64,000 nt of DNA from a bacterium. Lineage in GTDB: Bacteria > Patescibacteriota > Microgenomatia > Woykebacterales > RBG-16-39-9b. Below the pieces are notes generated by a model. That model had not been told where the DNA came from. It ran no database searches and saw only the letters and a program-made list of their open reading frames with translations. A program made the translations under genes and the position numbers. The stretch covers positions 793,702 to 857,701 of the forward strand of contig JAUYID010000009.1 of the NCBI GenBank assembly GCA_030704665.1, written 5' to 3'. This document shows positions 8,962 to 41,407 of the stretch, piece by piece. Numbering within the stretch: position 1 is the first letter of the stretch; every line of letters begins with the position of its first letter.

Positions 8962-10236
8962 TCAGGGGCTGATAACGAGATAAAAATCAGAGACATTTGA
9001 CTCCAGTAATCCAGTCTCAAGACTGTCCCCTAGTCTTTGGAAAAATTCAAAAGAATCGGCTCGGGCAAGAAACTCATCCGGGTTCAATCCTAAGTCCTCA
9101 GCTCGTTTTAACGAAGTTTCATCTCCGACTGCTCCGGCAGAATCAGAGTGATCGTGACCATCGCTTGCTGCCGCAATGATGACTTGGCCCTCTTTAATAT
9201 TTTTTAGGTTAGCCAAAACTAGATGTTGGTTGCGTCCTCCCACTCCGGCAGCAGCCACTTCAACACTACTCTCACCACTAGCCAGTAGTACTTCTCCGGC
9301 TTGAGCGCTGTTAAGTAATTTCAAGCCTAATTCCCCTGCTTCACCCTCCAAATCCGTTCCCAAAATTTTTATTTTCCAACCTAGTTCCCCGGCCTTGCGG
9401 GCCATCGCGCCGACGACACTGGCCGGGTCTTGCATGATTATGTTGCTGACTTTCTCAAAATACTTTTCTTCTTTTGGTGTTTCGGAAAATTCCAGTCCCT
9501 CCAATTTCAATTTATCCCAGACCCCGCGTTTTTTTAATATCTTTTCTGCTTCCTCAGAAGTCGACTGATCCAAAACCGTGGCTCCCGAAGCAATAGTAGA
9601 AAGATCGTTCCCCGGTACATCGGAAAAAATCAAAGAGACTATTTTTGCTCGGTAAGCAAGTTTAGCCAGTCGACCTCCCTTTATCTCCGAGAGGTGTTTT
9701 CTGACGACATTGAGCTGCCGGATATCAGCTTCTGCCTCCATCAAGGCTTTTGAGATCTCGGCTTTTCTCTCAACTGAAATTTTGTAAGGAGCAGTCATCA
9801 GAGCTGATCCTCCCCCAGCAATAACAAAAAGGACTAGGCTTTTTTCATTACTTTCTTTGAGTAGTTGAATGATTTTCTCGGTTGCGGCTACATTTTTTTC
9901 ACTCGGTTCGGGATGAGTTCCAGCGAAAGGTTGAACTTTCTTTAGCGCACCGACCCGGACATCAATAACTACCCCATCCTTCAATCTGTCTTCAAGTAAA
10001 TTTTCTAGTTCGACCACCGCGTCAAAAGAACCTTTGCCAATACCGAATAAATAAATATATTCTTAATCGTTTAAATTGAGGGTCTCGCTTTTTATCTTGA
10101 GTAAGTCTCCCTCCAACCGCACGTTTTTTTTGATGACGTCTTTGGTCCGAACTCCTTCGAAACCTGCTTCGATGATTTCCAGTGCAGTTTTTCGGATCCG
10201 AGTAGTGGCCAAAGAAGAAAAGTTTTTGATAATCAT
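8962..10236 (-). pseudogene. glycerate 2-kinase (MOFRL family) interrupted by a single in-frame TAA at 10063-10065
   Basis: The N-terminal piece ends ...LRLEGDLLKIKSETLNLND then TAA, and continues in the same frame EYIYLFGIGKGSFDAVVELENLL through the MOFRL body to ...YLVISP. I checked frame continuity by hand. Confidence 0.65.
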
Positions 10237-17343: not shown

Positions 17344-18432
17344 ATGAACCTGTCCCAAACCGCCATTGAAGCACGTTTGATCATCCGCTGGGCTCTGATC
17401 GCTATCGGAGGAATCATTTTTCTCTGGTTTGTTTTTATCACCACTCGGGCGATTGTTCGAGCTCTTTTGCCCAAAGAGCCCGTTCTTCCGACGGTAGCAT
17501 TTGGAAGGTTGCCGACCCCGCTTGCTACCAACGGTGCCATTTCGGGGGCCTCAATCGAAATTGACACTCCTGATGGCAGTCTTCCCTCTTTTCCCTCAAT
17601 GGTCAAGGTTTACGCAATACCCCAACCAAGTGGAAAAATCAATTCTTTGGATATCGCCAGCAAAAGAGCGGGCCAATATGGAATCAACGGCAATCCTAAG
17701 GCTCTTTCTTCTACTTTGTACCGCTGGCAAGACAAGGAAAGACCAGCACTCACTATCACTATCGATATCGTCACCGGTAATTTTAACTACAAATATGATT
17801 GGGTCGCAGATCCCAAAGTACTCCCCAAATCTTTTGACAAAGACGAGCTTCTCGCCGCTGGACCACGAGCACAAACCTTTCTTGGGCAGGGTTTTTCGGG
17901 CTTCAATGATTTTAAAGACGGTGAAGTAAAATCAAGCTATGTCCATATTTCCGGCTCAGAAAGAAGCACGGTTTCTAGCCCTTCGGAAGCGAATGCAGTT
18001 GAGGTCGATGTTTTCCGCAAAAAACTTGAGAGTAAATATTCCGTCGTCAGCTTCCACCCAACTCAATCTTTGATGAGAGTCTTGGTCGTTCCAGATGTAC
18101 CCAACAACAGTAGCGTTGATATACTCCAGGCCAGTTTTACTCATTGGGCAGTTGACTTTGACAATGGTTCGACCTACCCACTGAAAACTTCTTCGCAGGC
18201 TTTTGACGAGCTAAGGACGAATCGCGCTTATATTGTTTCAGGAAAACTGCAAGGTTTAGCTCGAGTAAAGGTAACTGATGTGCAACTTTCTTATTTAGAA
18301 ACAGAAAACTACTCTTCCTACTTACAGCCGATTTTTGTTTTCAAGGGCCAAGCACAATCCGGAAAAACCAAAGCTGATTTCATCGCCTATGTCCCCGCCG
18401 TCAGCTCCGATTGGCTACGATCAATTAACTAA
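17344..18432 (+). CDS. hypothetical membrane-anchored extracytoplasmic protein
   Basis: 362 aa with an N-terminal TM helix. No recognisable domain. Confidence 0.5.
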   Translation: MNLSQTAIEARLIIRWALIAIGGIIFLWFVFITTRAIVRALLPKEPVLPTVAFGRLPTPLATNGAISGASIEIDTPDGSLPSFPSMVKVYAIPQPSGKINSLDIASKRAGQYGINGNPKALSSTLYRWQDKERPALTITIDIVTGNFNYKYDWVADPKVLPKSFDKDELLAAGPRAQTFLGQGFSGFNDFKDGEVKSSYVHISGSERSTVSSPSEANAVEVDVFRKKLESKYSVVSFHPTQSLMRVLVVPDVPNNSSVDILQASFTHWAVDFDNGSTYPLKTSSQAFDELRTNRAYIVSGKLQGLARVKVTDVQLSYLETENYSSYLQPIFVFKGQAQSGKTKADFIAYVPAVSSDWLRSIN

Positions 18433-30992: not shown

Positions 30993-31457
30993 TTAGTTTA
31001 GTTCCACTTTGTATTGCAAGGCTTCGGCGAGATGCGAGGGGGTAATTTTTTCTTTGGCATCAAGGTCAGCAATCGTTCGCGAGACTTTAAGAATACGGTA
31101 AAAACTGCGGGCGGAAAGATTCATTTTGTTGATCGCCGCCGAAATGAGTTCTCGACACTCTGGCTCAAGACGACAAAATTCTTTGACTTGTCTCGCAGTC
31201 ATCTCGGCGTTAGAAACGATACCAGTACTCTTGAAACGTTTTTCTTGCTCGTTTCTGGCTAGTTGCACTCTTTTCCGGATTTGGGCCGAGCTTTCACCAG
31301 CTGGTATATCAAGCAAATCTTTGGTTTTCACAGCCGGAACACTGATGTGCAAGTCAATACGGTCGAGAATCGGCCCGGAAATTCTCTTTTGATAGCGGGT
31401 TACTTGTCCGGGCAAACAGGTGCATTCTTTGGTTGTATCACCAAAGAAACCGCAGGG
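30993..31457 (-). pseudogene. comM: comM (Mg-chelatase-like YifB/ComM) 3' portion, separated from its 5' portion by the inserted element
   Basis: Minus-strand translation PCGFFGDTTKECTCLPGQVTRYQKRISGPILDRIDLHISVPAV...AEALQYK matches the ComM C-terminal region. It is in the same reading frame as the upstream recombinase gene (ORF-track 30993-33284). Confidence 0.8.
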
Positions 31458-31478
31458 ATGTGGCTTTACATAAAGACC
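31456..31478. repeat. attL-type junction: core GG (31456-31457) plus element arm with TACATAAAGACC
   Basis: By direct reading, the host comM sequence ends at 31455, then the core GG, then ATGTGGCTTTACATAAAGACC. Confidence 0.55.
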
Positions 31479-33149
31479 TACAGAGGCTCCAGAGTCGTAT
31501 TTATAAACAATCTCGACCCGACCTCTGAAAATAAACACCTTATCAATAATCCTTCCGACCATTTCCTTCCGAACCATGGGTTCAGTCGCCGCTTCAAACA
31601 TTTCAAGTAACTGCCTTAAAGTTGAAAGAACATCCTTTCGTTTTACCTGGTCGTTAATTAGAAATTGTATTTTTTCAACTTCTTGTTCTAACAGAGCTCT
31701 TTCATTTTTTTGTACTTCGTACCGCCTATCAAACACATCGCGAATTATTCCTCCATCCTCAAACAGTTCTACCAACCTATCAACTTTACTATCGTATTCC
31801 TGTAGGTGTTTTTGGGCAACCTTAAAATGAGCCGTTAGTGATCCAGTTGATTGTGCTTCCTCCAAAGACAATTCGTTACTAACATCCTCCTGTCGGAGCT
31901 CTTTCAACCTGGTTTTCAATTTTGTGAGCACGAGATGTTCCAGTTTTGGGGCCGCCAAAAGATGTCTTCTACAAGTATTACCTCTGACGTAACTACTATC
32001 AATGAAGTCGCTTCTTACATAAACCTGACCATTCGGTTTCTTAGCCCTTCTGGTTTTCAGATAGGCCCTCTTTTGGCAATCACCGCACCATATTTTTCCA
32101 GCCAGCAATGAATCCGAAGCAAGTTGTCTACCAGTAACTTTAGATCTTGATTTCACCCTGTCTTGAATCTTATTGAAAGTAGCCTCATCAATAATACTCG
32201 GAACGTTTTTAGCTTCTTGTTGTACCCACCTATCAGGAGCAGTAAATACTCGTTTTTGTTTGCCGCTAACTGTTTTTCCTTGTTTGTATTTACTTCCGAG
32301 TTTCCGACCCCATCTCACTTTCCCAACCAAAGCGGGGTTGGTTAAAATGTTTTTTATTGTCGCAGACGACCAACTCCCTGGGCCCAGTTTACCTGTCGGG
32401 GAAGGGATTTTATCTCCAACAAGACTAAAAGCAATTTTACGAAAACTTCCACTAGAGAGGTATTCATCAACAATACGTTTAGCCACAACCGCTTTTGAAG
32501 GAATTAACTCAAAATGCCAATCGTACACCTGCTTACCATCAGCAAGAGTTTCAATCTTTGGTACTTTTTTAAGCCAAAAGGGAGCGAACACCATCTTGCC
32601 TCTTTCGGCTAATCCTCTGAATCCAGACCTAACTCTTTCACCCCGTGTTACGTTCTCTTGTTGGTCTTGGACTCCCGCTAAGGCGGCTGTCATCTGTTGG
32701 ACATAATTACCACCCCAGTAGTAATCAGTAGGTGTAATTGGTTCAACCGCAACGTTTCTCATGTAAACTTGGATGTTTGCAGTTTGAGCTAATCTCCTGT
32801 GAAACCTAAGAATTAAATCTGCTTCCCTTGCTAACCTTGATGAGTGGTAAACAAGTACGATGTCAAACTTTCGGAGTAAGCTATTTAGCGGTTTTACATC
32901 CTCCAGTAAACTTGCGGCTGCGGGTCTGTCTTCAAACTCAATATCACCGAATACCCCTGGCTCGATGTAGGGCTCAACAAAAGCCCAACCTCTCTGTTCA
33001 CAAATATCTTTTGCCCATTTTACTTGGTCAAAAATTGAAACTTTTTCCTCGGCAGCTTGGTCTAACGTGCTAACACGGGCATAAACCACCGCTTTTAAGG
33101 TCGGGGCTTGTATTGTCGGTCTGTAGCCTAAATTTAGTCCATCCTCCAT
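31456..33149 (-). CDS. large serine recombinase (integrase); ORF continues without a stop across attL into the comM 3' portion
   Basis: Has the N-terminal resolvase catalytic motif AVVYARVSTLDQ, a recombinase domain, a zinc ribbon (CGDCQ...C..C) and a coiled-coil. The recombinase part is about 560 aa with a likely start at MEDGLNLG. Confidence 0.8.
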
Positions 33150-33173
33150 CTGTCTTTGCTCCTTATTAACTAT

Positions 33174-33186
33174 GTGGCGGCCACAC
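33174..33186. repeat. 13-bp perfect palindrome TGTGGCGGCCACA (copy 1), between the AlpA-like gene and the recombinase start
   Basis: A GC-rich palindrome in an AT-rich context. An identical copy lies at 39155-39167. Confidence 0.5.
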
Positions 33187-33190
33187 AGCT

Positions 33191-33367
33191 TTAGTGTTGG
33201 GACATAAATTCCAACAAGTCGTCTTTCTTGAATCGGAGAGTCCGACCGTGTTTGTAACCCTTGAGTCCTTTTTTCAGCCACCAACGTCGGAGTGTTTCGT
33301 AATGAACACCCAACATGGTAGCGGCTTCTCGAAGGGTTAGGAATTCTTTTTCGACTGGTTTAGACAT
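33191..33367 (-). CDS. AlpA/Xis-like HTH_17 small DNA-binding protein (candidate excision/regulatory factor)
   Basis: 58-aa ORF not in the track: MSKPVEKEFLTLREAATMLGVHYETLRRWWLKKGLKGYKHGRTLRFKKDDLLEFMSQH, which matches the AlpA / excisionase HTH pattern. It sits immediately upstream of the integrase. Confidence 0.6.
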   Translation of the reverse strand: MSKPVEKEFLTLREAATMLGVHYETLRRWWLKKGLKGYKHGRTLRFKKDDLLEFMSQH

Positions 33368-33395
33368 TTTGATTACTCCTTAATTAAATAATACA

Positions 33396-33590
33396 TCACT
33401 TGTCAATGCTGTTATCTACTTGTTTACTAGCCTCAAGAGCCGACAGAGCTAGCTGTGTGAAATTTCGTTTTCCGACCTGATTAAAATTATCAACCACGTC
33501 TTGAGACGAGCAGACAGAACACCCACACCCAGATTTTGCCAAGTCGTCAAGTGTCTGCCGCTTCTTATCTACCAAAGTCCCTCGTCTCAT
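33396..33590 (-). CDS. hypothetical small protein (Cys-rich)
   Basis: 64 aa containing CGCSVC. It overlaps the upstream NTPase gene by 4 nt, which is operon-like. Confidence 0.35.
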   Translation of the reverse strand: MRRGTLVDKKRQTLDDLAKSGCGCSVCSSQDVVDNFNQVGKRNFTQLALSALEASKQVDNSIDK

Positions 33591-35062
33591 AACCCCCTCC
33601 TGCTTAACTCTTGGTACGAAGTCTCTAGTTCTTGACCGATTAAATTACGATTTGGATTATCATCAGGAGCGGCTTCATATTGTTCTAACAAAGTGTTAAT
33701 CCTGGACTGTAACTCCTCAACCGATAATTTTTTAACGTCAAAGTTTACCCCACCATGCCACTCACTATATTGTTTTGACGTTTCCTTACCTGTCGAAACA
33801 TTGGGTCGGGTAGTAGGGTAAGTTAGTTTTTCTCTTTTGTTTAGAGGGTTTTCCTCCTGATAAATCAGCCCAGAAGTCTCTAAAACAGGAATGATTTGCT
33901 GTCTTAGCTGCCAGTCCGCCAAGTGTCGCTGGTAAACTTCAAAGTGCTTTTTCAGGATTTCGTTTCTTGATACCCCAAGTTTTACCCCACCCCCTAACTC
34001 ACTATATTTATCGGTATAGGCGGGGACGATCACTTCCTTAAAAAGGTTAAAGACATAAGGTGGTAAGTTTAACTCCTGGCTTTCCGAAATCGAATCCCAA
34101 AGCTTGAATGCTTCCCGAACATCGTCCTCGTTGGCAACAAGTAATCCGTTTTGTCTTTCCCTGAACCACAAGTTAAGCAACGCAAAGGTTTTTATCAGGT
34201 TGATGATGCGGCCGACATCCCGTTGGTGGCGGGGTTTGTAAATCTTAATCCTGTCGGAAAGCAGTTTTTGAATCAGTTGCGGCGAAGCGATCTTGACGTC
34301 TTTGATCCCAGCTTGCTTGATAGCCTTGATACGGTCTTTTAGCATTTTTCTGACTGGGTCGAGGTCTAGGCTGCTTTGGTACTCGGTAACGTTTGATTCT
34401 CGTTTAATCCGCTCCGATATAGCTTCACGGATTTTTTCTTGATTCGTTTCTGGTGAAAGTAACAGGAACCTCGTGGTTTCTTGCTCATCGAGGTTTAGCC
34501 CAACTGTGCAAAAGATGACCACAGGGAAACCGATCAATTTTATATTCTTTGTCCTTAAACCCTGCCGTTGATTCTTGTCCGTAATTTTCAGTTCGATTAC
34601 CTTTTTGTCGTGTGAAAGTAGCGGCCTTAAATGTTCCAACAGTTGCGTGTGGGGTTGGTCTAGGAATATCAAAATTTTACGTGACAAGTCAGCCCTGTAA
34701 CTTTTAGACTCTGGGTCGTAAGAGCTTTGATCGTGAAAGAAAGCTGTTGGTGAACAATAACCAACTTCAACCACATCCTCCTCTGGAAACAATTTGGCAA
34801 TCTCCATCGGGATAAAGCTTTTGCCGCTTGAGGACGGTGCGTTGAAGGAGATGTTTAGCTGAGCGTCTTCCGTGTAACAAGAGAGCTGGGTCAGGAAAGT
34901 AATAAGCTTGTTTACCTCGTCCTTTTTAATCGTCAGACCAAGTATTTTTATCAGTTCTTGGCTAGTGATGGGCCCAAACTGGGACACGTCAATTTGTTCC
35001 TCTTGCTTCTGCTCAACCTCTTGTTCGGCTTTATCAATCAGATCAAAGGCTTCGTCGCTCAT
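33587..35062 (-). CDS. P-loop NTPase, phage/plasmid primase-helicase (SF3/D5-like) C-terminal-type
   Basis: 491 aa with a Walker A motif FNAPSSSGKS and a downstream Walker B-like IFLDQ. It is in an operon with the CHC2 zinc-finger protein. Confidence 0.55.
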   Translation of the reverse strand: MSDEAFDLIDKAEQEVEQKQEEQIDVSQFGPITSQELIKILGLTIKKDEVNKLITFLTQLSCYTEDAQLNISFNAPSSSGKSFIPMEIAKLFPEEDVVEVGYCSPTAFFHDQSSYDPESKSYRADLSRKILIFLDQPHTQLLEHLRPLLSHDKKVIELKITDKNQRQGLRTKNIKLIGFPVVIFCTVGLNLDEQETTRFLLLSPETNQEKIREAISERIKRESNVTEYQSSLDLDPVRKMLKDRIKAIKQAGIKDVKIASPQLIQKLLSDRIKIYKPRHQRDVGRIINLIKTFALLNLWFRERQNGLLVANEDDVREAFKLWDSISESQELNLPPYVFNLFKEVIVPAYTDKYSELGGGVKLGVSRNEILKKHFEVYQRHLADWQLRQQIIPVLETSGLIYQEENPLNKREKLTYPTTRPNVSTGKETSKQYSEWHGGVNFDVKKLSVEELQSRINTLLEQYEAAPDDNPNRNLIGQELETSYQELSRRGL

Positions 35063-35610
35063 GCCAGCCTCCTAACCGCGACCTTGAACTCCAAGTTTTC
35101 CAACCTCATCAGTAGATCAAGGCTGTCTCCACCCTGGTTGCAGCCGAAGCAGTACCAAGAGTTGTTGTGGGTGTAAATTGTGAAGGATGGGGTTTTTTCT
35201 TGGTGAAGTGGGCAAAGTCCCACAAATCTACTTCTGCTCACTTTTCTCAGTTTTCCAGCGAAAAGTTCTTCTATGGGGATTTGTCGGGCGGTTTCAACTT
35301 TCCTTTCCCAATCTTTGTTCTCACCTTTGTTGAGAAGTAGCATGGCACGATCAATGCTTTTACGTTCTTTTTTGATCCTGGCTAGCCATGAGGCGGTTCG
35401 ATAGGTCGCTATCCTAGTAAGGAACCAACTAACGAACTCATCATACTTTTGGTAGCTTCTTTTTGCGGCGGCGACTTTCAAGTCCAGCAGGGCTTGGGTT
35501 TTTTCCTCATCCTCATTCAGACTCCAGGCCTTTTCATTCAGGACAGGAACGGCGTCTTTACCAAAGACTTCGACCGCTTCCAACAAGGAGACTTTATTAC
35601 TTTCCATCAC
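35059..35610 (-). CDS. CHC2-type (DnaG-like) zinc-finger protein, replication initiation module
   Basis: 183 aa. The C-terminal CPLHQEKTPSFTIYTHNNSWYCFGCNQGGDSLDLLM matches the DnaG zinc-binding domain CPFH-EKTPSF...CFGCG-GG. The finger is unusually C-terminal. Confidence 0.6.
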   Translation of the reverse strand: MMESNKVSLLEAVEVFGKDAVPVLNEKAWSLNEDEEKTQALLDLKVAAAKRSYQKYDEFVSWFLTRIATYRTASWLARIKKERKSIDRAMLLLNKGENKDWERKVETARQIPIEELFAGKLRKVSRSRFVGLCPLHQEKTPSFTIYTHNNSWYCFGCNQGGDSLDLLMRLENLEFKVAVRRLA

Positions 35611-35797
35611 CGTCTCCTTCCTCAGAGTTTGGGACTAGAACATAACCCTTGCCTCCACAGCCTTGGCAGATTTTTGAACCAAACTTGACCGTACCGAAGC
35701 CATTGCAAACCACACACCGAAACGGGACGAACTTTGGTCTAACTTGGACGTTTTCAGGGTTGTCGTTATTCTGTCTGTCCATCTTTTCCTCCAACAA
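35597..35797 (-). CDS. small zinc-ribbon protein
   Basis: 66 aa with CVVC...CQGC. It is the first gene of the leftward operon. Confidence 0.4.
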   Translation of the reverse strand: MLEEKMDRQNNDNPENVQVRPKFVPFRCVVCNGFGTVKFGSKICQGCGGKGYVLVPNSEEGDGDGK

Positions 35798-35946
35798 AAA
35801 AACAGGCCTAAAATTCTCATTTTTATTTTCATTCTTATTACTTGAGAATTTTTCGGTCTGCCTTTGGCAAACTGTGGGGGGATTTACGAGCCCTTGTCCT
35901 CTTTATTTATTTTTACTTTTATAAGTATACCATAGTGTCGCCATCC

Positions 35947-35975
35947 TTGCTTATGCTTGGTAGAAGTGCGATAAT
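35947..35975 (+). promoter_or_regulatory. sigma70-like promoter (TTGCTT-17-GATAAT) for the thermonuclease gene, short leader
   Basis: The -35 is at 35947-35952 and the -10 at 35970-35975. The ATG is at 35987 with no SD, so the transcript is probably near-leaderless. Confidence 0.35.
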
Positions 35976-35986
35976 CTGGCCATCTT

Positions 35987-36886
35987 ATGCCAAAAATTAA
36001 CGCCGAGGAAATAAGAAAACTGTTTGAAGGTAAAAAGAAATTCTTTACTATCCCTATGGCCATAATCTTGGGTCTAGGTTTACTTCCAATCACAATCGGG
36101 TTAGGTATCGGCTACTTAGCTTACAAAAAGATTCCCAACACTACCCAAAGAAATGTTGCCCTGGGAGTCATTGCTTTAGTTACTTTGGGAGCCACCTTTG
36201 CTTGGTTTAACATGTCCTCCACCGAGCCTGAACCTCAACCTAGCCAACAAACAACACAATCAAATGAAACCAAAGAGAAAGCAAAGATTGAGAATGTCTT
36301 TAAGGTCACTAAGGTAGTTGACGGCGACACTATTGAAATTGAAGGTGGGAAACACGTCCGCTACATCGGGATTGATACTCCAGAAACAGTTGATCCCAGA
36401 AAAGAAGTCCAATGCTTTGGCCAGGAAGCCTCCGACAAAAACAAAGAGATGGTCGAAGGGAAAGAAGTTAGGCTTGAGAAAGATGTTTCCGAAACTGACA
36501 AATACGACCGACTCCTCCGTTACGTTTATGTTGGCGATACTTTTGTTAATGACAGCCTTGTTAGGCAAGGTTACGCTAGAGCTTCGTCTTACCCACCAGA
36601 CGTAAAACACCAAGACCAGTTCACCGAAGCAGAGAAGGAGGCTAGGGAAAACGATCGAGGCCTGTGGTCAGAATGTGAGAAAAAAGAGGAAGCAGCACCC
36701 CCAACAACAACCCCACCGCCAACAACTAGTGGGAATTGTGATCCTTCCTACCCTGATGTTTGTATTCCGAAGTACCCACCTGACCTAGACTGCGGCGACA
36801 TTACTTACAGGAAGTTTAAGGTCTTACCTCCTGACCCACATGGGTTTGACGGAAAGGACAACGACGGGGTCGGTTGTGAAAGTTGA
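35987..36886 (+). CDS. membrane-anchored secreted thermonuclease (SNase-like) with C-terminal Excalibur Ca-binding domain
   Basis: 299 aa with a TM helix. The SNase core is VVDGDTIEI...RYIGIDTPE...RLLRYVY and the C-terminal Excalibur motif is DGKDNDGVGCE. Confidence 0.75.
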   Translation: MPKINAEEIRKLFEGKKKFFTIPMAIILGLGLLPITIGLGIGYLAYKKIPNTTQRNVALGVIALVTLGATFAWFNMSSTEPEPQPSQQTTQSNETKEKAKIENVFKVTKVVDGDTIEIEGGKHVRYIGIDTPETVDPRKEVQCFGQEASDKNKEMVEGKEVRLEKDVSETDKYDRLLRYVYVGDTFVNDSLVRQGYARASSYPPDVKHQDQFTEAEKEARENDRGLWSECEKKEEAAPPTTTPPPTTSGNCDPSYPDVCIPKYPPDLDCGDITYRKFKVLPPDPHGFDGKDNDGVGCES

Positions 36887-37197
36887 TGGATTGGGGAATT
36901 TTTTTAATCGTCTTATTCTTTGGTTGGATAATAATAGCCTTCATTAACGACTCAAGATTTTCCAAAGATCATAAAATTCTAAGTAAGCTAACGATAGTAA
37001 TTGTGGGTATTGCTGCCCTTGTAATAGGTTTGGCTTGGGCAGAGGAGTCCCCACGAACTCCAACAAGAACTAGAAGTACCACACCTTACATTCAACAATC
37101 AGAACCAAGTGCACTCTGTCGAGATGGAACATTAAGTTACAGCTCCAATCGGCGGGGAACTTGCTCCCATCATGGCGGAGTAAGTGTTTGGTACTAA
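36883..37197 (+). CDS. DUF3761-domain membrane protein
   Basis: 104 aa with 2 TM helices. The C-terminal CRDGTLSYSSNRRGTCSHHGGV matches the DUF3761 signature. Confidence 0.55.
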   Translation: MMDWGIFLIVLFFGWIIIAFINDSRFSKDHKILSKLTIVIVGIAALVIGLAWAEESPRTPTRTRSTTPYIQQSEPSALCRDGTLSYSSNRRGTCSHHGGVSVWY

Positions 37198-37210
37198 TTA
37201 AGGAAATACT

Positions 37211-38311
37211 ATGACTGACGATGAGATTTTGAAATTAAGAAAAGAATACAAACTCCACGAAGTCGTTGAAGACAGACTGGTGAAGTTGTTTAAGGAACTT
37301 TCTCCAACGAACTACACCTTGAAAGAAGGGATTGGCCTTACAAGCGGCCGCACCGACACAAGCCACTATATCGGAGGCGGAAAAATAATTCACGTTGAGG
37401 TAATAGCCTCCGCCAACATGGTTGCTAAGGATTTACTTAATCTCCACCAGAGTGTCGCCGACGGTAAGGTTGTTGTGTTGATGGATGAGGAAATTGATCC
37501 AACAGTAACCAAGGAGTATTTTTCGGATCATGCCACCGACAGGTTTCCCAGACTTTCAATCAGCGAAGTTCTGGACGAGGACAAGAAAGAGGCTGTTCTT
37601 GTAAAGCTAGCCGACATTGTCCAGGAAATTGACAAAACCACCGTTAAGTTCAAAAACGAATCACAGAAAAAGTTTGACCAATTCCTCAAGGACTTGAACC
37701 GACAAGGAGAGTTGATAACCTATGACTTCGGGTTTTTCCCTAGAAAAAATTTGGGGGTTTTCCAGAAACTCTCGGACGCAGAAAAACTCTATCACGAGCT
37801 AGACCCACTTGGATTTTCCGCCGCCGCAGGTCTTCATAGAGGGTATGGTTTATCGTGGGAGTTCGGGAACGACGGTAAGTTTTTGCGGTTAGGATACTCT
37901 GACAAGGACAACAACTTGATCCCCTTTGTCTCTGTTGGAGACTACGGTGAGGTAATTCACACCAGCTCCTACCACAAGGAGGGCTTTACCGAAATTCATA
38001 AACCTACACTCCTAAGCTTGTTGAATCCCGTAGTTGAATTTTACAAAGAGCTAGTCAAAAAGAAAGGCTACAAAGGAATGGTGGATGTAATCGCACACTT
38101 TAGCGGTTTCGAAGGTCTGAAGTGGGTAACTACCAATGACCCCGCCGCACTAATAATTAGAGGTAAAGCCTTCTACAGCGATGAAATTACTTGTCCAGTA
38201 TTCTCAATTACAGCAGAGGATTTGCAGAAGCCTGAGAAAGTCCAAAGTTTAATTGGTGAGATGCTCCTAGTCTTGGAGAGAAACAGCAATAAAATTCCTT
38301 GGAGCAGGTAG
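37211..38311 (+). CDS. hypothetical protein (element cargo, unknown function)
   Basis: 366 aa with a good SD (aaggaaatactATG). No domain recognised. Confidence 0.5.
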   Translation: MTDDEILKLRKEYKLHEVVEDRLVKLFKELSPTNYTLKEGIGLTSGRTDTSHYIGGGKIIHVEVIASANMVAKDLLNLHQSVADGKVVVLMDEEIDPTVTKEYFSDHATDRFPRLSISEVLDEDKKEAVLVKLADIVQEIDKTTVKFKNESQKKFDQFLKDLNRQGELITYDFGFFPRKNLGVFQKLSDAEKLYHELDPLGFSAAAGLHRGYGLSWEFGNDGKFLRLGYSDKDNNLIPFVSVGDYGEVIHTSSYHKEGFTEIHKPTLLSLLNPVVEFYKELVKKKGYKGMVDVIAHFSGFEGLKWVTTNDPAALIIRGKAFYSDEITCPVFSITAEDLQKPEKVQSLIGEMLLVLERNSNKIPWSR

Positions 38312-38397
38312 TATTCAGCACCTGCTATAATAAGTCAAACTGCCAGAATTACCTTACAAGCAAGTTAAAAGCTTGGTGTAAGTAGCGTAGCTACATT

Positions 38398-39021
38398 ATG
38401 AGACTAAAGATATTACTGGTGATTTTGGGTTCTCTGCTTCTTGCCTCTGGAATCTATCTCGGAATAAATAAATTTATACTTCAACCAAAAGAAAAAAGCC
38501 CTGTTGCTTCTGTTGTGGAAACCAAAGTGGCGACTGAGTCTGCCGAGCCAAAACCCGAAGGAAAGAAGGAGGACGCAAAAGCTCCAACAGGGGAAGTTTC
38601 GGGTGCGACTACAAATACTGTCCAGCTCCCAACACAACAGAATACACCTCCACTATCAGTACCAGATGAATCAGGCAAGATCGCTACTCTTAACAGCTTA
38701 ATTGAGAAACTAGTCGGTTTGGCTGTAAAAATATGGGCGGAGGACGAAAAAATTAAAGCAACTACTCAAGGTTGGTTTGCTGCTCTGGAAAATTGTAATT
38801 CCGATCCAATAATTCCCTATGCTGACTGCGTTGAACTAAAAAACACTTATTACTCAGCACTTCTAAACATATCCAATGCTGCAAGAAAGAGTTATTTGGC
38901 TGATTATCGCAATTACGAGGCCCAGGCTAACCAAATAAAGGCTTCGTGCTCCTCAGTCTGTCAAACTATTTGGAATGACTACATCCAAGCACTTCAAAAG
39001 GGTGGTATTCCTCAACCTTAA
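38398..39021 (+). CDS. hypothetical membrane-anchored protein
   Basis: 207 aa with an N-terminal TM helix, a charged linker and a Cys-containing C-terminal domain. Confidence 0.45.
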   Translation: MRLKILLVILGSLLLASGIYLGINKFILQPKEKSPVASVVETKVATESAEPKPEGKKEDAKAPTGEVSGATTNTVQLPTQQNTPPLSVPDESGKIATLNSLIEKLVGLAVKIWAEDEKIKATTQGWFAALENCNSDPIIPYADCVELKNTYYSALLNISNAARKSYLADYRNYEAQANQIKASCSSVCQTIWNDYIQALQKGGIPQP

Positions 39022-39154
39022 AACACTAAGCTGACCAAATACACCACTCCACCAATACAAACAGTTTTACCAGTCAGACAGGTTCGGCTGTGGACTAGAG
39101 ATGGCTAATTATGTGGTGTCCGCCGACCAACATCGTTAATCCTTATCCCTTGTG

Positions 39155-39167
39155 TGGCGGCCACATA
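39155..39167. repeat. 13-bp perfect palindrome TGTGGCGGCCACA (copy 2), between convergent genes downstream of terS
   Basis: Identical to 33174-33186. Confidence 0.5.
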
Positions 39168-39293
39168 TGGTTTAACCACCTTGACCAGGGAATTAGTAAA
39201 ATTTATATCGCGGATTTCTGTGGCACTTAACGGTTATATTTATTTTGTAACAAAGGGTGTGGTGGGGGTAGTTCGGGACTAACTGACTTGGTC

Positions 39294-39746
39294 TTAATTC
39301 ATCTTGGCCAACACTTGTCTCGTGTTTTCTTGTGTTTCGGCTAGTATCTGCTTTAACTCCTCAATAGTCTTACCCTCCAGCTCTTTGTGAAACTCTAAGT
39401 TAGCGTTGAGGTTTAAGTTCCTAGAGGCTGGGAAGCGGTCTTTTAGTTTGTTGACCATTTCGATTGCTTGCAAGGCGACGCTTGGTTTGGCTTGTCGGGC
39501 GTTCTTGAGACCTGCTTCAATTATCTGTCTGGTGGATTCATCAACATAAGTATCACTCAAACCCGCTCCTTCAAGCTGTTGTCGGATCGCTGTCAAGACG
39601 TGAGGTCTACCAAGATTTTTGTAGGCTTCGTTGTTGGCCTTCGTAATAGAGTACCCAGCCTTGCGAGCCGCCAGGCTTCCGTTGCCGTTAGCTTCACCGA
39701 CGTAGTATTTAACGAATTTTTCCTGCTTTAGTGTCAGCTTTTTCAT
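39294..39746 (-). CDS. phage terminase small subunit (Terminase_2 family)
   Basis: LTLKQEKFVKYYVGEANGNGSLAARKAGYS matches the terS (PF03592-type) N-terminal HTH LTPKQE-FC-EY...NATQAA-RAGYS. No terminase large subunit is present in the window. Confidence 0.7.
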   Translation of the reverse strand: MKKLTLKQEKFVKYYVGEANGNGSLAARKAGYSITKANNEAYKNLGRPHVLTAIRQQLEGAGLSDTYVDESTRQIIEAGLKNARQAKPSVALQAIEMVNKLKDRFPASRNLNLNANLEFHKELEGKTIEELKQILAETQENTRQVLAKMN

Positions 39747-39927
39747 ATTTAATCTTTTTGCATGGCCTTGCAACTTACCGCCTGGCAGGAAGTTAAGGAA
39801 CTTTACAACAGCCAGTCAAATTTCTACCCATATATAGTATAACTGACAAAGAATATAGTGAGTTAGATGGTGGAGTAAACAGATTTTAGGTTCAATAATA
39901 TAGTGAGTGGGGTGGTGGGGTAAACTT

Positions 39928-40287
39928 TTAGTTAGATTTTTCGACTTGCCAGTCCCCACCTTTAGTGTCGTAAATCACACAGTAACGTCCTTCGAAAGTA
40001 ACCGCCTTACCGCATTCCTGGCTAGAAATCGAAACGTAGCCGCCATTGGGAAACTCCATCTCAACAATTCTCTTATCCTCAACTGTTACTGCCAAGGTGT
40101 AGCAATTATCATTGTTTGGATTGTGAACCACGCAGACTCTTTGGTACTCAGTACCATCCCACCAAGGCTTATCGTAACTGATTCCAAAAGGCCACCAATG
40201 AAAAAAGAAAGCACCAATCAAGTAGAGGATTATTAGTCCCACTACTCCACCGCCTACTTCGTTTGTATGATTCTCGTCGTTTTCCAA
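39928..40287 (-). CDS. hypothetical membrane protein
   Basis: 119 aa with one TM helix and a Cys-containing C-terminal domain. It is the last gene inside the element's right end. Confidence 0.4.
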   Translation of the reverse strand: MENDENHTNEVGGGVVGLIILYLIGAFFFHWWPFGISYDKPWWDGTEYQRVCVVHNPNNDNCYTLAVTVEDKRIVEMEFPNGGYVSISSQECGKAVTFEGRYCVIYDTKGGDWQVEKSN

Positions 40288-40331
40288 TTAAACCTCCCTA
40301 GTCAATTATAACGCTTTTTAGGTGTCGGGAT

Positions 40332-40354
40332 GGTCTTTATGTATATCCTTAAGG
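40332..40354. repeat. attR-type junction: element arm GGTCTTTATGTATATCCTTAA plus core GG (40353-40354)
   Basis: This is the inverted counterpart of the left arm. The TTA at 40349-40351 is the reverse complement of a TAA that terminates the comM 5' fragment. Confidence 0.55.
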
Positions 40355-41407
40355 ACAAGGATTCGCCGCTGCAATCAAGACAAATTTGGCCGGAAAAGTC
40401 ACGTTGGTCGCTGCCCTCGACACCGTCACAAACCCATCTTCGAGAGGCTGGCGCAGTGCCTCGAGAACATTTCTCGGAAACTCCGGGAACTCATCAAGAA
40501 AAAGTACGCCGCGGTGTGACTGCGATATTTCTCCTGGTTTGGGATTGGCTCCACCACCAATGATACCCACACTACTCGCGGTGTGATGGGGACTACGAAA
40601 CTGTCTTTTTGTGACTAAACCACCGTTGACTCCGCCTAGAACAGAGAAGATTTTAGTAACTTCCACTGCTTCCGAAAAAGTCAAACGAGGCAGTATCGAA
40701 ACAAAAGTTCGTGCCAGTAGCGTCTTACCCGCCCCTGGTGGTCCTTTGAGTAGAACGTTGTGACCACCAGCAGCTGCAATCTCCAGTGCTCGTTTGGCTT
40801 GTTCCTGTCCTTTGACCTCTTTCATATCTAGTTCGAACTCTTCCTCAGGAGCAAAATCAAACTTTCTTGGTTTAAACGGGTTGATGGGTGAGACAGCAGT
40901 AAAATGATCAAAAACCTCCCGGATATTTTTCACTGGGAGTATTTTTACCTTCTCAACGACAGAAGCTTCAATTGCATTTTCGGTCGGGAGTATCAGAGAA
41001 TCAAAATTTTTTTCTTTGGCTAGTAGTGAGAGAAGCAGAGCTCCCTTGGTTGAGTTGACTGAGCCGTCAAGCGAAAGCTCACCAAAAATTAAGGTCTTGG
41101 CAATATCAGCTTCAAGTTGACCCGAAGAAAGCAAAATCCCCAAAGCAATTGGCAGGTCAAAACTTGGACCTTCCTTGGGCAAATCAGCTGGAGCAAGGTT
41201 GACCGTAATGCGTTTAGCGGGGAAATCAGCACCAACGTTTTTCAGAGCGGCCCGGACCCTCTCGCGAGACTCCTCAACCGCCTTGTCCGGCAAACCAACG
41301 ATTGTGAATGAGGGTAGCCCTTGAGAAGCAATATCAACTTCAATTGTTACCGGCACTGCTTCCAGGCCAACTAGAGAACCGGAGTGGATTTTGGATAGCA
41401 TTGCCAA
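40349..41407 (-). pseudogene. comM: comM (Mg-chelatase-like YifB/ComM) 5' portion, truncated by the insertion; ends NPCP followed by an element-derived TAA
   Basis: 352 aa with N-terminal Lon-like and ChlI AAA+ domains (Walker [18 protein letters not shown]). It ends exactly where the ComM zinc-finger PCPCG motif should continue. Confidence 0.85.

Follow-up and report, generated by a model that had tools for sequence, protein, structure and literature searches.

How an intact competence gene could be cut in two by foreign DNA at a single dinucleotide, and by which enzyme, are the questions raised by the locus described here. In the window, by which we mean the whole 64,000-nucleotide stretch of DNA that was analysed, from an uncultured ultra-small (CPR) bacterium, a gene of the YifB/ComM family of AAA+ proteins lies in two fragments on the minus strand, over which the ChlI, Mg_chelatase and Mg_chelatase_C domains are divided. 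A recombinase gene borders one of the two breaks, and our analysis concerned the anatomy of both junctions, the enzyme, and the relatives of the element in other genomes.

A comM gene split by an element with its own recombinase

The 5' part of comM (40349..41407, minus strand, 352 codons) carries the ChlI and Mg_chelatase AAA+ domains and ends in AAANPCP, terminated by an element-borne TAA directly after the crossover. The 3' part (30993..31455, minus strand, 153 codons) holds the end of Mg_chelatase together with Mg_chelatase_C and is in frame with the integrase gene. Deletion of 31458-40354 in silico produced an uninterrupted ComM ORF of 505 aa (...AAANPCPCGFFGD...), whose restored junction codes for NPCP/CG. 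In a search of 5.8 billion proteins, the nearest proteins to this restored ComM were 70-73% identical, some of them Mg chelatase-family proteins of Candidatus Woykebacteria. A conspecific empty comM was found neither in that search nor in a scan of the genome collection; because the top relative is only 73% identical, the exact attB can be compared just at the codon level and with more distant genomes. At that level, 80 related genomes were compared, most of them from Patescibacteria and Chloroflexota (best identity 64%), and NPCPCG was unbroken in 74. Thus the alignment with uninterrupted comM genes of relatives, the check proposed with the original prediction, came out in its favour, as did the length of the restored ORF.

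The gene at the left end of the element encodes a large serine recombinase (LSR; 31456..33149, minus strand). It probably starts with the ATG at 33149 (MEDGLN...) and has no stop within the element. [quoted passage not shown] The catalytic-serine motif YARVSTLDQ (KAVVYARVSTLDQ) aligned with that of the TP901-1 integrase (KVAIYTRVSTTNQ); S7 is invariant across nine integrase homologues, and so are the C/C/C/H ligands C335, C338, C373 and H376. A coiled coil beyond the zinc ribbon is only suggested, by an AF2 model with long helices at 403-444 and 450-500 (pLDDT 72-86) that is poor overall (pLDDT 58, pTM 0.32). Annotated phage LSRs are about 24-26% identical to the window integrase, the closest being of the SPbeta type. 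A promoter and terminator scan around int gave background levels only.

Just upstream of int lies a gene for a 58-aa HTH_17 excisionase-like protein (33191..33367, minus strand). This HTH_17-int order is repeated in L085-L088 (L numbers designate contigs with related elements), and the protein is a candidate recombination directionality factor (RDF) or regulator; an Xis-like RDF is known for the phiRv1 serine integrase. A replication module follows (33587..35610, minus strand), syntenic in L083, L085, L087 and L131 and made up of a 491-aa protein with the Walker A motif APSSSGKS (33587-35062) and a CHC2 zinc-finger primase-like protein of 183 aa (35059-35610). The cargo region (35987..40287) encodes a SNase-family nuclease, probably membrane-anchored (35987-36886), a DUF3761 protein (36883-37197), a TerS-like HTH protein (39294-39773, minus strand) and three ORFs of unknown function. 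The TerS match spans just the N-terminal 56 of 141 profile positions, and no capsid, large terminase or tail gene was found within the element cargo. With replication genes and no virion genes, the element would be an integrative replicon or possibly a phage satellite, not a complete prophage. L131 instead has an FtsK-like gene, and an integrative plasmid would fit that just as well. Judged by gene content, a phage satellite or integrative plasmid gene set in a CPR bacterium is possible.

Two families of repeats were seen in the same region. Four copies, 85-91% alike, of a repeat of about 30 nt (AATATAGTGAGT..GGTGG.GTAAAC) occur at 33740-33774, 33976-34008, 39848-39880 and 39894-39928; two are in tandem in the intergenic region beside the TerS-like gene, and the other two, inversely oriented, fall within the 3' part of the gene for the 491-aa Walker A protein. 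They resemble iterons or a replication origin. A 33-nt repeat (76% alike) is present directly upstream of the integrase start codon (33153-33185) and downstream of ORF 38398-39021 (39133-39165). It ends in a perfect 13-bp palindrome (TGTGGCGGCCACA) and may be an operator or terminator.

Junction anatomy and the position of the crossover

The left junction reads ...GAAACCGCAG-GG-ATGTGGCTTTACATAAAGACC, with GG at 31456-31457, and the right junction reads GGTCTTTATGTATATCCTTAA-GG-ACAAGGATT..., with GG at 40353-40354. The junction letters quoted in the original prediction were recovered on both sides, and the perfect 12-bp inverted arms that it had described on the element side were confirmed, at 40332-40343 (GGTCTTTATGTA) and 31467-31478 (TACATAAAGACC). 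At both junctions the perfect arm is spaced from GG by exactly 9 nt, so that the axis of symmetry passes between the two G's. Compared in register, the 24-nt element arms are complementary at 17 of 24 positions, with a longest run of 12 (binomial P ~5e-6 for the in-register symmetry). When 400,000 position pairs were drawn at random from the window, 17/24 was reached by two and a run of at least 12 by none. Inverted repeats of similar size are not rare, with 79 pairs across 9.8 kb; the non-random feature is the exact registration of the inverted arms on both junctions.

The window junctions have three bases in common, GGA (31456-58 and 40353-55), and GG and GA are therefore inseparable from the window genome alone. 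A crossover at the overlapping GA (31457-58 and 40354-55) would fit this shared GGA as well as GG does, yet we consider it very unlikely. The axis of the 12-bp arms sits exactly between the G's, and the related elements point to the same place. In the L083 element attL and attR are identical over TCCCT; in L087 and L088 the identity is CC only, the bases 5' and 3' of it differing between attL and attR. A serine recombinase needs identity only across its 2-nt overlap, so CC is the sole overlap available in these two elements: the crossover is CC (GG on the plus strand) and GA is excluded there. The intact attP of L131, described below, is symmetric around the same CC. Hence the GG core of the original prediction stands on the dyad axis and on L087 and L088, but not on the window by itself.

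In comM orientation, the left GG belongs to attR (P-O-B', 31432-31481) and the right GG to attL (B-O-P', 40329-40378). On the element side, half-site P (31458..31481, left junction) contains the arm TACATAAAGACC and doubles as the last ~8 integrase codons (..GLYVKPHP); half-site P' (40329..40352, right junction) contains the arm GGTCTTTATGTA and, immediately past the core, a TAA stop at 40349-40351 on the minus strand. On the host side, B (40355..40378) codes for ComM IAAANPC(P) and B' (31432..31455) for CGFFGDTT. attP spans about 50 bp and forms an imperfect dyad around a non-palindromic CC (GG on the plus strand). attB is formed by the ComM codons AANPCP/CGFFGD, and the crossover takes up the first two bases of the second Pro codon, which makes the CC invariant under any codon usage. 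The predicted joined sites are CACCAAAGAAACCGCAGGGACAAGGATTCGCCGC for attB and TATGTATATCCTTAAGGATGTGGCTTTACATAAAG for attP.

The same Pro codon of comM is used by integrases 37-54% identical in at least 11 CPR lineages. Four complete elements whose integrase is fused to ComM use the same dinucleotide, namely those of the window (8,897 bp), L083 (10,258 bp), L087 (7,652 bp) and L088 (11,264 bp), and in L128, which belongs to a sister clade, an element of 11,130 bp splits comM there too. Cargo and length differ among these five (7.6-11.3 kb). The same attR at P/CG was present on six more contigs (L081, L085, L086, L091, L092 and L093).

Half-site consensus sequences, read toward the core, were ..taATG..aA.CC.cat/CC for P, ATGTA.A.CCttA./CC for P', TtGCaGCg...AA.CC.TG./CC for B and Tc.CCaa..tA.CC.CA./CC for B'. 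A(-8) and CC(-6,-5) are common to all four half-sites, and an outer ATGT(A) motif at -14 to -10 is restricted to the attP arms; by eye, attB held no convincing copy of this outer motif in the inward-shifted position of the A118 model. Between the two arms of attP, 17 of 24 positions match in the window and 13-19 in four relatives, always with CC at the centre, as against 5-11/24 in attB. A more symmetric attP than attB is, as far as these alignments go, the pattern expected for LSR sites. The host arms had been described as not symmetrical, but both carry A(-8) and CC(-6/-5) like the element arms and so are not devoid of symmetry.

An intact site was found on L131 alone, a contig of 8,493 bp with an integrase of 42% identity. 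Between the FtsK-like gene and int, at 1565-1615, it reads AAACAATGTCAACCCCTGC-CC-GTAAGGATAGACATTGTTT; the contig has no terminal overlap. L131 thereby presents, in a natural unintegrated relative, exactly the P-CC-P' arrangement that was predicted.

Inverted repeats near both ends plus a short direct repeat are also what a transposon would display, with the arms as terminal inverted repeats and GG(A) as a 2-3-bp target-site duplication. We give this reading practically no credence. The LSR is the only recombinase of the element, which encodes no transposase, and the perfect repeats begin 10 nt inside the element ends. Moreover, in five elements with integrases only 41-54% identical to that of the window, the insertion falls, across different hosts, at one and the same dinucleotide of one codon, as in site-specific recombination, and precise removal gives back the comM ORF. 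All together, the LSR at the element end, the in-register arms and the use of one dinucleotide by four further complete elements uphold the identification of a serine-integrase attP. We conclude, with a probability of about 0.9, that the element comprises 31458-40352 plus one GG (8,897 bp) and was integrated by its own LSR through conservative site-specific recombination.

An integrase gene that continues into comM

Since attP lies within the last int codons and int has no stop of its own, the integrated copy encodes an Int::ComM' fusion. Indeed, the ORF 30993-33284 (763 codons) runs in frame from int through the P arm and the core into the comM 3' part, and the product of the integrated gene would be an Int::ComM' protein of about 718 aa, ending at 30993. 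In the circular form, the predicted product is a 565-aa Int ending in ..KPHP, with the P' arm providing the TAA. The same TAA has two roles: it ends the truncated ComM when the element is integrated, and it would end the 565-aa integrase in the circle. It stands straight after the core (CCn TAA GG) in all four complete elements of the fused clade, and annotated fusion proteins of about 715 aa occur in at least nine other lineages.

The lack of a stop in the integrated int ahead of the comM sequence might be taken to mean that the att sites are genuine relics of an element now fixed, its integrase made only as the 718-aa fusion, excision lost and comM permanently inactive. Our searches are compatible with this, as they returned neither an excised form nor an empty site of the window element. 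Nevertheless, we judge such a fixed state unlikely. The int ORF is intact, as are both arms and the TAA, and absence from the sparse CPR metagenome data is weak evidence. Moreover, the fusion architecture is kept in at least nine lineages at about 50% identity, in complete elements that differ in cargo, which argues for repeated mobility from the fused state.

Free copies were also looked for directly. Neither a degenerate attP pattern nor a profile of the integrase detected an excised form of the fused clade among viral contigs, and no free copy of the window element was found; the fused-clade metagenome contigs that were found are all integrated. Two short contigs were considered as possible free forms and rejected: L130 (8,925 bp) is integrated, with attR at the contig end, and L089 (7,662 bp), which had the look of a possible circle, is an integrated fragment.

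In several assemblies of related hosts (L081, L082, L085 and L086) the contig ends within the element, some few kb upstream of int. This is a typical sign of assembly ambiguity caused by the coexistence of integrated copies with free or variant ones.

On L083, a Woesebacteria-type contig, a second comM 3' fragment (17894-18262, 122 aa) is 78% identical to the integrase-fused ComM' part. It is situated 5.7 kb further downstream, behind genes for a two-component system and MacB-type efflux, which suggests an older insertion that carried its own replacement comM 3' end.

Sister integrase clades (about 40-47% identical) hit comM at or beside the same Pro codon but are arranged differently: attP lies 5' of int in L128 and L131, and in L129 (2675-3232) a separate, element-encoded leader ORF of 27 codons is fused in frame to comM'. 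The attP/attB identity of L128, whose comM junctions lie near 9,950 and 21,080, extends over 20 bp, an unusual length for a serine integrase. The unfused clades represented by L128, L129 and L130 are all in comM, so that fusion of int is not required for use of this site.

The two predicted integrase isoforms, a 565-aa circular form and an integrated form of about 718 aa with a 153-residue ComM lid, could act as a switch that provides a built-in control of directionality or commitment, much like the integration-dependent immunity of mycobacteriophages. This would be the case if the ComM extension altered coiled-coil behaviour or stability. We regard such a switch as improbable. Nevertheless, an integrase whose C-terminus depends on its state is a small and testable oddity.

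Proposed reaction and comparison with known systems

By analogy to the biochemistry of the LSRs of phiC31, Bxb1, A118 and SPbeta, from which the following steps are inferred, integrase dimers would bind attP and attB and then synapse. Double-strand cuts with a 2-nt stagger would be made at the central CC, and a 180-degree rotation of subunits followed by religation would yield attL and attR, with the orientation set by the non-palindromic CC. The recombinase domain would recognise the inner motif shared by all half-sites, and the zinc ribbon the outer motif of attP. Excision would restore comM precisely and would probably involve a directionality factor, for which the HTH_17 protein is the obvious candidate. 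As ComM is a transformation helicase, insertion in its gene may inactivate the recombination of incoming DNA and thereby shield the element from deletion by transformation.

These sites have some practical interest. To our knowledge, almost no genetic tools exist for CPR/Patescibacteria, and the locus offers a defined attP/attB pair, with the crossover pinned to one dinucleotide, for a serine-integrase family of these bacteria. An attB located in the near-universal NPCPCG of comM could be a landing site in many of them. The known preference of mobile elements for competence genes is here extended to ultra-small episymbiotic bacteria, a group in whose physiology DNA uptake probably plays a central part.

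The target itself is a familiar one. Of the site-specific LSRs predicted in a published survey, 12.4% target Mg-chelatase/ATP-dependent-protease homologues, and competence genes are over-represented among the targets (PMC10083194); the sr1WO serine recombinases of phage WO insert into the Mg-chelatase gene of Wolbachia (PMC9203015). A comM-type target is the commonest known for this class of enzymes, and the window element forms an ordinary integration junction. It has in common with the elements of Durrant et al. 2022 and of phage WO the enzyme class, the target gene family, the intragenic split, the precise restoration and a very short core. Unlike those, it resides in a CPR/Patescibacteria host (Microgenomates-like), and its attP overlaps the 3' end of int.

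Among solved structures, SPbeta SprA (YokA; PDB 9dxh and 9dxd, with DNA and RDF) has the same domain order as the window integrase and was its best full-length match (E 8e-5, residues 235-535). It was also the best among phage records, at 25.6% identity; the homology is remote. It differs in its target, spsM, and in its RDF, SprB, which is unrelated to the HTH_17 protein.

The Listeria comK gene is the subject of an 'active lysogeny' switch. The integrase of Listeria phage A118 / phi10403S inserts in this gene (PMC3556126). As in A118, the window LSR has entered a competence gene, and attP is an imperfect dyad around a 2-bp crossover; the A118 reaction is unidirectional without RDF. The two systems differ in that A118 targets comK, not comM, and is a complete phage, whereas the window element lacks virion genes.

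The closest parallels to the state-dependent C-terminus involve integrases of another class. In SSV1-type archaeal integrases, the int gene is split by attP. In the integration-dependent immunity of mycobacteriophages, attP is inside a gene and integration alters the C-terminus of its product (PMC8092301). As in both systems, the recombination site of the window element lies in its own coding sequence, the free and integrated proteins end differently, and the junction creates or abolishes a stop codon. Both systems rely on tyrosine integrases, however, and the mycobacteriophage gene affected is a repressor, whereas in the window element a serine integrase exchanges only its last codon and stop and gains 153 residues of the host protein.
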